Shown here: one piece after another, positions 16,026 through 21,201 of the stretch
How positions within the stretch are numbered: the first letter of the stretch is position 1
Layout of the letters: the number at the start of each line of letters is the position of its first letter
Source of the DNA: Escherichia coli
GTDB lineage: Bacteria > Pseudomonadota > Gammaproteobacteria > Enterobacterales > Enterobacteriaceae
Assembly: GCF_029227855.1 (NCBI RefSeq)
Contig: NZ_CP074356.1
DNA: 64,000 nt
Direction: 5' to 3' (one strand)
Made by a program: the position numbers and the translations under genes
The notes under the pieces: model-generated
What the model saw: only the letters and a program-made list of their open reading frames with translations
Databases searched by the model: none
What the model was told of the DNA's origin: nothing

Positions 16026-17129
16026 TCATGCACCCACTAAATGCAGGCAAACATCCGGGCCTACATGACGTATCTCTTTGAATTTAAATTGGGGGGCGTC
16101 AGCTAATTTCTCAAGCCCTGGCAGCGTGCATAATCCACGGGCGTCGCTGCCTAATAGTTTAGGTGCGATATAGACAATCAGCTCATCGACTAAACCCGCC
16201 TGCAGCAATGCGCCAGCGAGCGTTGGCCCCGCTTCCACCCAGATGCTGTTAATCTGCTGTTTACCCAGTTGCATCATTAGTACAACCAGATCCAGATGAC
16301 CTTTATGCTCTGGAATCAGCAAGGTACGTACCGTTTCCGGCCACTCACGAGAATCTTCCTGCGTACGCGCGAACCAGGTTTCGCCGGGCTGCTGCACAAT
16401 GCGATGTTCCGGCGTCACGCGATTTTGGCTATCAATCACAATACGTATCGGCTGACGGAGATTTTGTTGCGGATAGAGCGCCTGAGTTTGTTCATCCAGT
16501 TCAGACCAACGCACTGTTAAGGCTGGATCATCCGCCAGCACCGTGGCGCTGCTGGTTAAAATGGCATGACTTTGTGCGCGCAGTCGTTGTACGTCGCGCC
16601 GCGCCTGAGGCGAAGTGATCCACTGGCTTTCGCCGCTCGCCATCGCCGTGCGACCATCAAGCGATGCGCCAAGTTTTAATTGAATATAAGGAAAGCCGGT
16701 GCGCATCCGCTTGAGAAAGCCTTTATTCAATTGCTCGGCTTCACTCATCATCAGCCCGTGGCTGACGTCAATGCCAGCCTGTTGCAGACGATATAGCCCT
16801 CGCCCAGCTACCTGCGGGTTAGGATCTTGCATCGAGGCAACCACGCGCGCCACACCTGCGGCAATTAATGCATCACAGCAAGGCGGCGTACGGCCGTGAT
16901 GGCTGCAAGGTTCGAGTGTCACATACGCAGTCGCACCTTTGGCTTTATCTCCAGCCATACGCAACGCATGTACTTCGGCGTGTGGTTCACCAGCACGGTG
17001 ATGGTAACCTTCACCGACAATTTCGCCATCTTTGACAATGACGCACCCGACATTCGGGTTAGGATGCGTGGTAAAACGTCCTCGTTGCGCCAGCTTTAGC
17101 GCCCGCGCCATGTAATACTCGTCCTGCAC
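16026..17129 (-). CDS. ribD: bifunctional riboflavin biosynthesis deaminase/reductase
   Basis: 367-aa ORF, cytidine-deaminase zinc motif HAEV...PCxxC plus reductase domain. Confidence 0.95.
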
Positions 17130-17132
17130 GGC

Positions 17133-17618
<486 letters not shown>

Positions 17619-17732
17619 TTACCCTGAACTGACGATACAACAAAGGCGCAACGCTTTTGAGATAAAGGATCGATGCTTTCGCTGCTTTTACCCTCTACCA
17701 TTAGGCTAATTGCGACGAGAAAGGGACGACCT

Positions 17733-17862
17733 ATGAATACTAACGTTTTTCGACTGCTCCTGCTGGGAAGCCTGTTCAGCCTTAGCGCCTGTGTGCAGCA
17801 AAGCGAAGTGCGACAGATGAAACACAGCGTCAGCACGCTGAACCAGGAGATGACGCAACTCA
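17733..17862 (+). pseudogene. yajI: 5' fragment of lipoprotein gene yajI interrupted by an insertion sequence
   Basis: Signal peptide plus lipobox (MNTNVFRLLLLGSLFSLSAC) and about 43 codons match YajI, then the reading frame runs into IS-derived sequence. Confidence 0.8.
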
Positions 17863-17905
17863 TTGACATCCTCCACGCCCTGAAGGACGTGGATCCCTGC
17901 TACGT

Positions 17906-19114
17906 TCAGGCTGTCGCCTGAATCATTTCGGTGGGTTCCTGCTTCAACGGGCGGCCTGACTGCACCATCTCTCCACAGGCAAGAACGGCGTGCCCCGCCG
18001 CTAAAATGTTACGAGCGCCATTTACATCGGCGTTCGCTGTATATCCACATACCTGGCATCTGAATTGACTTTGTGACAGGCGATTTTCTTTCGCTGTATG
18101 ACCACAGCACGCGCAACGCTGACTTGTGTACGCTGGCGGAACAGCAAGCACCTGACCGCCACTCCAGAGCTGCTTGTACTCAAGCTGGCGGCGCATTTCA
18201 TACCAGCCCTGATCCAGTATCGAACGGTTTAAACCTGATTTTGCCCGGACATTGCGCCCCGGCTGGCTGACCGTACCCGCTGCTGACTTTGACATGTTAC
18301 TGACCTTCAAATCCTCAATGACTATCATTGCGTGGTTTTTGCTGACGGTCGTTGTGACTTTATGAAGGTAGTCCCTGCGGATATTTGCGATACAGGAATG
18401 CAGTCGCTGTATTTTGCGTTTCTGCTTCTGCCAGTTGTTGCTGAATTTGACCTTGCGGCTTAACTGTCGCTGAAGTCTCGCCAGCTTCTTCTGGTTTTTC
18501 TGAAAACTGTTTACAGGCTCAAAGACTGTGCCATCTGACAGCGTGGCGAGTTTAGCCACGCCAGCATCCAGCCCGACCATTGATGCTGAAGGGTGAACCG
18601 GAGTTGATACTTCACTTTCTGTCTGAATACTGATGTACCACTTACCGCAGGACTGGCAGACCGTGACATTTTTCACAACACCCGTGACCTGACGGCTATT
18701 CCGGTAGCGCATCCAGCCAAGTTTCGGCAGAAAAATACGGCTGTTTTCCTGATCGAGCTTAACGCCCTGCGGGTAGCGGAATGCATCATTCTGTCCCCGC
18801 TTTTTGAATCGGGGAAAAGCAGCCCGCTTCCGGAAGAAGTTTTTGTAAACCCGCTCAAGGTCTTTCAGTGACTGTTGCAATGGCTGTGAGGGCGAATCTT
18901 TAAGCCATTGCGTTTCAGTGGCGTTTTTCCACTCAACCAGCCAGGAAGCCATTTTCCCGTAAGGGATGTATTTATTACCGGCCTCATGATTCTCATTCTG
19001 AAGCGCCAGAGCACGATTGAAAACGAAACGACATGCGCCTGCGAAGCGCCTCATTTCACGCTCCTGTTGACCACCGGGTCTTAACTGGAATTTAAATGCC
19101 TGTAGTCGTTTCAC
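17906..19114 (-). CDS. tnpB: TnpB (IS605 OrfB-family RNA-guided endonuclease), apparently intact
   Basis: 402 aa, GTG start; RuvC-like motifs [18 protein letters not shown] and [10 protein letters not shown] plus zinc finger CACCGH...CQVCG. Confidence 0.9.
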
Positions 19115-19121
19115 AGGCCAA

Positions 19122-19600
19122 ATGATACTTTGGTCTGTGAAAAAAGAAACCGATATCCGGCGTGGAAGGCATTGTGTTTTCCTGATGCATGTTCACCTGG
19201 TCTTTGTCCCAAATACCGACGCCAGATTTTTGACCATGACGCGACAGAAAAACCACGCACTTACTTTTCAGATGTATGTGCTGATTTTGAAGCTGAACTG
19301 GTTGAAATGGATGGCGAACCAGATCACGTCCATTTGTTAATTAACTATCCTCCCAAACTGGCGATATCCAGTCTGGTAAACAGCCTCAAAGGCGTATCGG
19401 GTAGGTGACTGCGACGAGATCGACCAGATATTGCAGTCAGGTATTACTACAAAGGCGTTTTGTGGAGTCCTGGCTATTTTGCCAGTAGCTGCGGAGGTGC
19501 GCCAATATCCGTCATCCGCCAATACATTGAACAACAGCAAACACCTGGTCAGGTGGAAAACCGCGCCTTATATCCCCGCCCTGAAGGACGGGGTTTTACG
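19122..19600 (+). pseudogene. tnpA: IS605-type tnpA (Y1 HuH transposase) remnant, disrupted by a frameshift and an in-frame stop
   Basis: HuH motif and downstream conserved region (HVHLLINYPPK...SLKGVSGR, then WSPGYFASSCG) split over reading frames with a TGA at 19406-19408. Confidence 0.6.
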
Positions 19601-19614
19601 GCGCACCGGATAAA

Positions 19615-20019
19615 GAAACAGTCAAAATCACTCAGCAAAACAGGCTGAATGCAAAATCCAGCAGTGGGGTTTACCTTCTGCCTGGAGCGAAAACACCAGC
19701 AAGACTGGAAAGCCAGATCGGTACTTTACGTATGTCGCTGGTGAATATTACGCCTGATACAGATGGCACCACCCTGACGCTACGTATTCAGGGCGAGTCG
19801 AATGATCCCTTGCCCGCATTCAGCGGAACTGTTGAATATGGGCAAATTCAGGGAACAATAGACAACTTTCAGGAAATCAATGTGCAGAATCAATTGATTA
19901 ACGCCCCTGCCAGCGTCCTCGCCCCCAGCGATGTTGATATTCCGTTACAGTTAAAGGGTATTTCTGTGGATCAGTTAGGCTTTGTACGTATCCACGACAT
20001 TCAACCTGTTATGCAGTAA
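19615..20019 (+). pseudogene. yajI: 3' fragment of yajI
   Basis: In-frame translation ETVKITQQNRLNAKSSSGVYLLPGAK...IHDIQPVMQ matches the C-terminal part of YajI. Confidence 0.8.
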
Positions 20020-20316
20020 ACGTTTCGCGGGGCGTTTTGTGCGTCCCGCAACATCTTTCCCCGTCATTTTGTTACTCTGCTTACATCACCCAGATTGATA
20101 GTAAAAGTTTGCAACAAGGGTGAAAGTCAGTACAATCCCCGCCCGAATGTGTGTAAACGTGAACGCAATCGATTACGTAAATGATAGAACTGTGAAACGA
20201 AACATATTTTTGTGAGCAATGATTTTTATAATAGGCTCCTCTGTATACGAAATATTTAGAAACGCAATTTGCGCCTTTTTCACTCCCGCAAGGGATTTTC
20301 AAACAGTGGCATACAT

Positions 20317-21201
20317 ATGAAAAAAACATTACTGGCAGCCGGTGCGGTACTGGCGCTCTCTTCGTCTTTTACTGTCAACGCAGCTGAAAACGACAAACCG
20401 CAGTATCTTTCCGACTGGTGGCACCAGAGCGTTAACGTTGTCGGAAGCTATCACACCCGTTTCGGACCGCAGATCCGCAACGATACCTACCTTGAGTACG
20501 AAGCATTCGCTAAAAAAGACTGGTTCGACTTCTATGGTTATGCGGATGCGCCGGTATTCTTCGGCGGTAACTCCGATGCAAAAGGTATCTGGAACCACGG
20601 TTCTCCGCTGTTTATGGAAATCGAACCACGTTTCTCCATCGACAAGCTGACCAATACTGACCTTAGCTTTGGTCCGTTCAAAGAGTGGTACTTCGCGAAC
20701 AACTACATTTACGACATGGGTCGTAATAAAGATGGTCGCCAGAGCACCTGGTACATGGGTCTGGGTACCGATATCGATACTGGCCTGCCGATGAGCCTGT
20801 CCATGAACGTCTATGCGAAATACCAGTGGCAGAACTATGGCGCAGCGAATGAAAACGAGTGGGACGGTTACCGTTTCAAAATTAAATACTTTGTGCCGAT
20901 TACCGATCTGTGGGGCGGTCAGCTGAGCTACATCGGCTTCACCAACTTCGACTGGGGTTCCGATTTAGGGGATGACAGCGGTAATGCAATAAACGGTATT
21001 AAGACCCGTACCAATAACTCCATCGCTTCCAGCCATATTCTGGCTCTGAACTACGATCACTGGCACTACTCTGTCGTAGCTCGTTACTGGCACGACGGTG
21101 GTCAGTGGAACGACGATGCAGAACTGAACTTCGGCAACGGCAACTTCAACGTTCGCTCTACCGGCTGGGGTGGTTACCTGGTAGTAGGTTACAACTTCTA
21201 A
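20317..21201 (+). CDS. tsx: nucleoside-specific outer membrane channel Tsx
   Basis: 294-aa product starting [22 protein letters not shown] (signal peptide), C-terminal ...GYLVVGYNF; the track ORF is extended upstream. Confidence 0.95.

Follow-up and report, generated by a model that had tools for sequence, protein, structure and literature searches.

The window, i.e., the whole 64,000 nt stretch of E. coli DNA that was analysed, includes a chromosomal segment with the gene order ribD - nrdR - yajI - tsx - yajD. Here yajI lies between nrdR-ribD and tsx, the conserved position of the SadB/YajI family (PMC3953254). As described in the same paper, YajI has no assigned function and is paralogous to SadB of Salmonella; its N-terminal part is predicted to form a coiled coil and its C-terminal part a beta-sandwich (PMC3953254). 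In the window, yajI is interrupted by a copy of IS609: nt 1-130 and nt 131-540 of the gene flank the 1747 bp element, with no deletion and no target duplication, and the reading frame of the 5′ fragment continues into the right end of the element. The features of the locus are listed in Table 1.

Table 1. Features of the interrupted yajI locus, in window coordinates.
Feature	Coordinates	Strand	Remarks
nrdR-yajI intergenic region	17583..17732	+	yajI 5′ region; ribosome-binding site AAAGGGACGACCT before ATG
Native part of the chimeric frame	17733..17862	+	signal peptide M1-A19, 17733-17789; lipobox L17-C20, 17781-17792; mature residues 20-43
Predicted 16-nt omega-RNA guide (TGAGTTGCGTCATCTC)	17847..17862	-	antisense to yajI codons 39-44; reads 17862 down to 17847
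IS609 (IS200/IS605 family)	17863..19609	-	1747 bp; left end 19609, right end 17863
IS-derived tail of the chimeric frame	17863..17921	+	19 codons; reverse complement of the IS609 right end, last 59 nt
Predicted omega-RNA scaffold	17863..18040	-	tnpB 3′ end and right end; 5′ limit approximate
Right-end subterminal hairpin (CCACGTCC-TTCA-GGGCGTGG)	17873..17892	-	presumed TnpA recognition hairpin; last predicted omega-RNA stem
Palindrome TTCAGGC-nnnn-GCCTGAA	17905..17922	both	TTCAGGC-GACA-GCCTGAA; direct reading and hairpin prediction
tnpB (insQ)	17906..19114	-	402 aa, intact; Pfam HTH_OrfB_IS605, OrfB_IS605, Cas12f1-like_TNB
tnpA (Y1 HUH transposase) pseudogene	19137..19552	+	GTG start; 1-bp deletion near 19208; internal TGA 19406-19408
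Left end with hairpin (CCCCGTCC-TTCA-GGGCGGGG)	19574..19609	-	hairpin 19593 down to 19574
Target/transposon-adjacent motif TTTAT	19610..19614	-	ATAAA on the plus strand; yajI codon 45 is AAA
yajI 3′ fragment	19610..20019	+	nt 131-540, beta-sandwich domain; normal stop at 20019

The chimeric frame runs along the plus strand from an ATG at 17733 to a TGA at 17919-17921 (189 nt, 62 sense codons). Its first 130 nt are native by alignment with the yajI gene of K-12, and the similarity ends after 17862. Codon 44 (ATT, 17862-17864) spans the junction with its first base native, and because of this the product consists of 43 YajI residues and a further 19 that are new; the 62-aa product includes the peptide stretch HSVSTLNQEMTQLIDILHALK. 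The native residues comprise the signal peptide, the lipobox (LSAC) and 24 mature residues, the latter representing the start of the predicted coiled coil. Residues 1-20 (MNTNVFRLLLLGSLFSLSAC) fit a PROSITE-style lipoprotein signal/lipobox pattern, with a positively charged n-region, a hydrophobic h-region and a lipobox of the form [LVI][ASTVI][GAS]C, in which Cys20 is encoded at 17790-17792. The initial annotation had proposed that the signal peptide and lipobox are kept, and that 19 IS-derived codons follow before a stop at 17921. Alignment with K-12 bears out both points, together with the pattern match for the first and direct reading for the second. The start codon is likewise intact.

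The same annotation held that the native promoter is retained. The 150 bp nrdR-yajI intergenic region differs from that of K-12 at a single position, so that whatever promoter and ribosome-binding site yajI possesses have been kept, but a promoter scan of this region gave no match to the sigma-70 consensus. The claim therefore stands for the upstream sequence and not for a mapped promoter; the literature on yajI likewise yielded no promoter or phenotype data. Intact YajI has been detected in outer-membrane vesicles of E. coli (PMC11578119), indicating that the signals work in those strains and that the short product could well be made. Translation of a 62-aa precursor is plausible, and expression of the lipopeptide is possible.

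IS609 and its insertion site in yajI

Over 1747-1748 bp, the element shares 98.2% identity with the annotated IS609 of K-12 (32 substitutions in 1747 bp). Near-identity to IS609 along the full length, the Y1 (HUH) tnpA gene, subterminal hairpins at both ends in place of terminal inverted repeats, the lack of a target duplication and insertion 3′ of a fixed motif of 4-5 nt place it in the IS200/IS605 family. Five copies at independent sites were compared (the window, K-12, an E. coli IncF plasmid, a Klebsiella plasmid with about 78% overall identity, and a related element of an IncI2 plasmid), and their similarity stops exactly at both boundaries, the right one lying directly after ...GGAGGATGTCAA. 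A sixth site, the left end of an element in Entomohabitans, provided target-site evidence only; it was the single locus found when species-representative genomes were scanned with the left end, and target-site evidence was otherwise taken from the K-12 and plasmid copies. The right end terminates in ...CCACGTCC-TTCA-GGGCGTGG-AGGATGTCAA. Its hairpin has 8-9 pairs, and the Klebsiella copy keeps one pair that is changed on both sides as well as one that is changed on one side.

The TnpB protein matches the NCBIfam guided_TnpB model NF040570 with 383.8 bits (cut-off 100) and the structures of ISDra2 TnpB with an E value of 7e-54. It carries the residues expected of the nuclease, i.e., the RuvC triad D183/E267/D363 and the zinc-ribbon CxxC pairs C334/C337 and C353/C356. 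The tnpA sequence gives Y1_Tnp matches in two frames, is 89-96% identical to intact TnpA, and is labelled 'frameshifted; internal stop' by PGAP. By these lesions, tnpA is dead in the window copy, so IS609 cannot excise by means of its own transposase and the allele is stable.

The IS609 of K-12 (insQ/tnpB and the tnpA pseudogene yncK, between ydcL and ydcO) resembles the window copy in having the same ends, a TTTAT 5′ flank, an intact tnpB of 402 aa and a tnpA with an internal stop. Unlike the K-12 element, the window copy lies inside yajI, has an extra 1 bp deletion in tnpA, and has three private changes in TnpB (A89V, R318S and K350Q).

Lesions in tnpA differ between the copies that were compared (window 19137-19552; MS 69-1 [L005], 3023-3448; L004, 4219-4650). 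The K-12 copy shares the internal TGA; in the full-length copy of MS 69-1, HVN stands in place of the HUH motif. The tnpA frame of IS609 also lacks the stop codon of a related intact element and continues through the left end. A related element at 2198-3960 of plasmid pVE362 (IncI2; L010) has an intact tnpA of 138 aa as well as a tnpB of 402 aa, and could supply transposase in trans to IS609 copies whose own tnpA is dead.

At four of the five independent IS609 sites the left end is preceded on its 5′ side by TTTAT, and at the fifth by ATTAT; the related element of pVE362 has TTTAC. In K-12, the corresponding yajI sequence is TTGAT and codon 45 is CAA (Gln), whereas in the window it is TTTAT and codon 45 is AAA (Lys). 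A search with a 40-mer of the empty site found 1889 genomes with an intact yajI and the TTTAT (Lys45) allele, 28 of them exact, and the K-12 version of the 40-mer (TTGAT, Gln45) found 2030 genomes. Going by these sequences, IS609 most likely entered the common TTTAT allele, with no need for a later mutation of the motif; entry into a K-12-type TTGAT site followed by mutation is less likely. As the target motif is polymorphic in E. coli, only some natural yajI alleles are expected to serve as insertion sites or as TnpB targets.

Removal of 17863-19609 in silico gives a yajI gene of 540 nt with no differences from the intact yajI of strain Ecol_316, which argues that the insertion is clean, is the sole lesion in the gene and is evolutionarily recent. 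A partial deletion of yajI can be ruled out, as all 540 nt are present. In the proposed sequence of events, an element of the IS200/IS605 family with an intact tnpB and a dead tnpA would have inserted 3′ of TTTAT, at codons 44-45 of yajI.

The predicted omega-RNA and the tail of the chimeric frame

By analogy with other TnpB elements, we infer an omega-RNA and a guide at the right end of IS609, the guide being deduced from the right-end boundary and the published TnpB mechanism. The consensus fold of the predicted omega-RNA among the five copies includes five pairs that have changed on both sides and are kept, and in the copy that is 78% identical overall the predicted omega-RNA region is more conserved than the upstream tnpB coding sequence. 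The single-sequence fold of the putative omega-RNA was not better than those of shuffled sequences (z = -1.5), and no Rfam family reached its gathering score; the sub-threshold matches were minus-strand HgcC (21 bits versus 50), sot0042 and RAGATH-18. A connection with TnpB guide RNAs has been made for the HgcC and sot families, and the sub-threshold matches count as a suggestive lead rather than proof.

TnpB nucleases act on donor joints, and a TTTAT motif has been described for a related TnpB (bioRxiv 10.1101/2023.03.14.532601). The TnpB/omega-RNA systems of ISDra2 and ISGst2, which cut the empty donor joint, have the domain architecture and catalytic residues of IS609 TnpB in common, and an omega-RNA-type region at the tnpB 3′ end and right end, as predicted for IS609. 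The transposon-adjacent motif of ISGst2 TnpB2 is TTTAT, the same as at IS609 sites. A difference from these systems is the dead tnpA of the window IS609, which means that no excision product would arise from the element's own transposase. The predicted guide corresponds to the yajI flank, and TTTAT together with TGAGTTGCGTCATCTC would specify the empty yajI site, i.e., the donor joint. Cutting of this joint by TnpB would hold the element in place, as in characterised TnpB elements. A search of the literature on IS609 TnpB found only a mention of protein purification, and nothing on activity or on a motif.

On the minus strand at 17825-17840, within the yajI 5′ fragment and 22 nt beyond the right end of the element, there is a hairpin resembling a terminator (CAGCGT-GCTG-ACGCTG, then TGTTTCATCT). 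It could stop transcripts that read through from tnpB or the omega-RNA, or it may be a chance match.

The 19-codon tail is no longer than chance predicts. When the IS or the window was entered from arbitrary positions, at least 19 codons were read before a stop in 42-52% of cases, with a median of 15-20, and the other two frames at the junction stop after 6 and 1 codons. A protein family search with the tail gave no match. Read on the minus strand, the tail contains the last five codons of tnpB with its stop codon (17906-17908), the 17905-17922 hairpin and the right-end hairpin. One arm of the 17905-17922 palindrome holds the stop codon of tnpB and the other that of the chimeric frame, the TGA of the latter being the mirror image of the former. 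In the divergent copy from Klebsiella, compensatory substitutions are seen in both tail hairpins, and that of the 17905-17922 hairpin is from G-C to A-U. Among relatives of IS609, the tail stretch is conserved more strongly than the upstream tnpB coding sequence. Read in this way, the tail is a by-product whose sequence is set by the opposite strand, where the end of TnpB is encoded and the right-end hairpin and the scaffold of the predicted omega-RNA are located, and nothing suggests a selected new function for the chimeric frame. The yajI frame would simply read on into the right end of the element for 19 codons, to a TGA that sits by chance in a palindromic hairpin.

No plus-strand terminator was found between the chimeric stop codon and ~18480, and the chimeric mRNA would run antisense through the 1.2 kb of tnpB, perfectly complementary to the predicted omega-RNA. 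Taken together, and as judged from the geometry, these features count against accumulation or function of the product; a 43-residue peptide with a lipid anchor might accumulate or might not, and would be without a selected role. The same arrangement raises the alternative of an interplay between the two strands, in which read-through from the yajI promoter dampens TnpB/omega-RNA, or an abundant omega-RNA destroys the chimeric mRNA. The convergent geometry, in which complementarity is perfect over 75 nt or more (17847-17921 and further), and the long stretch free of a terminator are consistent with this, but the argument is one of geometry, and any IS605-family insertion so oriented inside a transcribed gene would provide the same. 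Such an interplay is rather unlikely, and the reading of the tail as a by-product is preferred.

Distribution of the interrupted allele

The window sequence is 100% identical to that of strain JNEC-KY178 over the 2.5 kb tested. The same junction was found in 340 of 5426 complete E. coli genomes, with agreement between the 2.5 kb query and a junction-specific 70-mer. In every carrier inspected, PGAP/RefSeq gives 17733-17861 as an incomplete pseudogene, the PGAP label of the yajI 5′ fragment being 'incomplete, missing C-terminus'. The exact 62-aa product, and one of 82 aa, are deposited on at least 1000 contigs under the names 'hypothetical protein', 'putative lipoprotein' and 'DUF3251 domain-containing protein'. 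Both the allele and its IS609 are already known, as an annotated pseudogene, a catalogued element and a deposited peptide. Among the 15 public peptide variants examined, the frame is open in all, and the single changes are scattered over the native part and the tail, one of them falling within the signal peptide; because the insertion is recent, the open frame of these variants says nothing on selection.

Between lineages, the IS609 copies at this one yajI site show 0.8-1.2% divergence (14 and 21 of 1747 positions, window versus ST2747 [L002] and MS 69-1 [L005]), while the immediate flanks (17133-17862 and 19610-21149) differ from those of the same two genomes by just 3-4 positions in 2270. 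About ten substitutions and the 1 bp deletion are private to the window copy. The greater divergence of the element than of its flanks possibly reflects gene conversion among IS609 copies, or homogenisation of the flanks by recombination. In ribD (16100-17100), the carriers ST2747 and MS 69-1 differ from the window at dozens of sites, up to several per cent, unlike the nrdR-yajI::IS609-tsx region, which is nearly identical among these carriers. This contrast indicates a recombination breakpoint between ~17061 and 17526, and the allele has possibly spread by homologous recombination.

The number of carriers, and the considerable differences between their ribD flanks, which hint at diverse backgrounds, could also be explained by an adaptive knockout or regulatory insertion, with the loss of YajI or an IS-altered expression of the neighbouring tsx gene being advantageous in certain lineages and the open frame being irrelevant. 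The orientation of tnpA, which points toward the yajI 3′ fragment and tsx, would be compatible with the regulatory version; however, a promoter scan found no outward promoter at the left end, and yajI has no known phenotype. A dead tnpA lets any insertion persist by descent alone, and the observed frequency fits the clonal expansion of a few sequenced clinical lineages. An advantage of this kind is quite unlikely, and a pseudogene allele with an incidental open frame remains the preferred reading.

Loss of YajI and the standing of the chimeric product

The chimeric peptide matches DUF3251 (PF11622) only over profile positions 1-26 of 161, and scores 60.3 bits against the YajI equivalog model NF008575, compared with a cut-off of 158 and a score of 317.6 bits for the reconstructed intact protein. 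[quoted passage not shown] The yajI 3′ fragment has its first in-frame start at M85 (19732) and no signal peptide. Loss of YajI function is well supported, because these domains are mostly or wholly missing from the chimeric product and the 3′ fragment is without an early start or signal peptide. The initial annotation was correct in concluding that the mature YajI domain is lost, and its proposal of a loss-of-function allele agrees with the missing domain.

The yajI 3′ fragment contains a 95-aa frame from Met85 (19732-20019), downstream of the tnpA pseudogene and in the same orientation; any product of this frame would be cytoplasmic.

The chimera shares with the SadB/YajI lipoproteins the nrdR-yajI-tsx locus, the signal peptide, the lipobox and the first 24 mature residues, but differs from the family in the missing domains and in falling below the family cut-off. 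A parallel is found in the IS-interrupted pseudogenes that are common in E. coli and Shigella, which show the same in-frame fusion to a few IS codons, then a stop, and carry the same pseudo label. Compared with these, yajI::IS609 stands out only by having kept an entire lipoprotein export signal.

An alternative is a neomorphic mini-lipoprotein, also put forward in the initial annotation. After translation, the precursor would acquire its lipid at Cys20, signal peptidase II would cleave it, and with Val at +2 it would be directed to the outer membrane, giving a helical peptide of 43 residues with a function of its own, e.g., as a short coiled-coil lipoprotein resembling Lpp. E. coli makes stable lipoproteins similar in size to the chimeric product. 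Like the chimera, Lpp and YqhH begin with a lipoprotein signal and continue into a helical segment of heptad-like character and comparable size, and the N-terminal part of the chimera gives weak matches to both. These are far below threshold (16-19 bits versus cut-offs of 108-120), and the chimera, which has no C-terminal Lys for linkage to peptidoglycan, is not a member of either family. The intact expression signals and lipobox, the expression of native YajI in other strains (PMC11578119) and the frame that is open in all variants examined would be in keeping with a functional peptide. Against this, the tail has the length expected by chance and a sequence that follows entirely from the conserved IS right end of the opposite strand, and the recent insertion, with zero further changes in yajI, makes conservation uninformative. 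Only about three heptads are left of a coiled coil that is described as weakly trimerising (PMC3953254), and the mRNA would be without a terminator and complementary throughout to the transcripts of tnpB and the omega-RNA. Beyond the open frame nothing supports the neomorphic claim, and a chimeric lipoprotein with its own function is highly improbable.

Two far-reaching outcomes, a 43-residue outer-membrane lipopeptide with an envelope gain-of-function, or yajI read-through acting as a host-controlled antisense brake on the IS609 omega-RNA/TnpB, are together very unlikely. The locus is very probably a yajI::IS609 pseudogene allele, in which the 62-codon frame is an incidental read-through into the end of the element.

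Apart from correct annotation, the finding of a chimeric frame is of little consequence. The carriers, about 6% of complete E. coli genomes, are natural nulls for yajI and could be of use in the search for a YajI phenotype. The locus also provides a tidy natural case of an IS609 TnpB with a predicted guide that matches a polymorphic host site, the TTTAT form being present in ~1900 intact genomes and the TTGAT form in ~2000.
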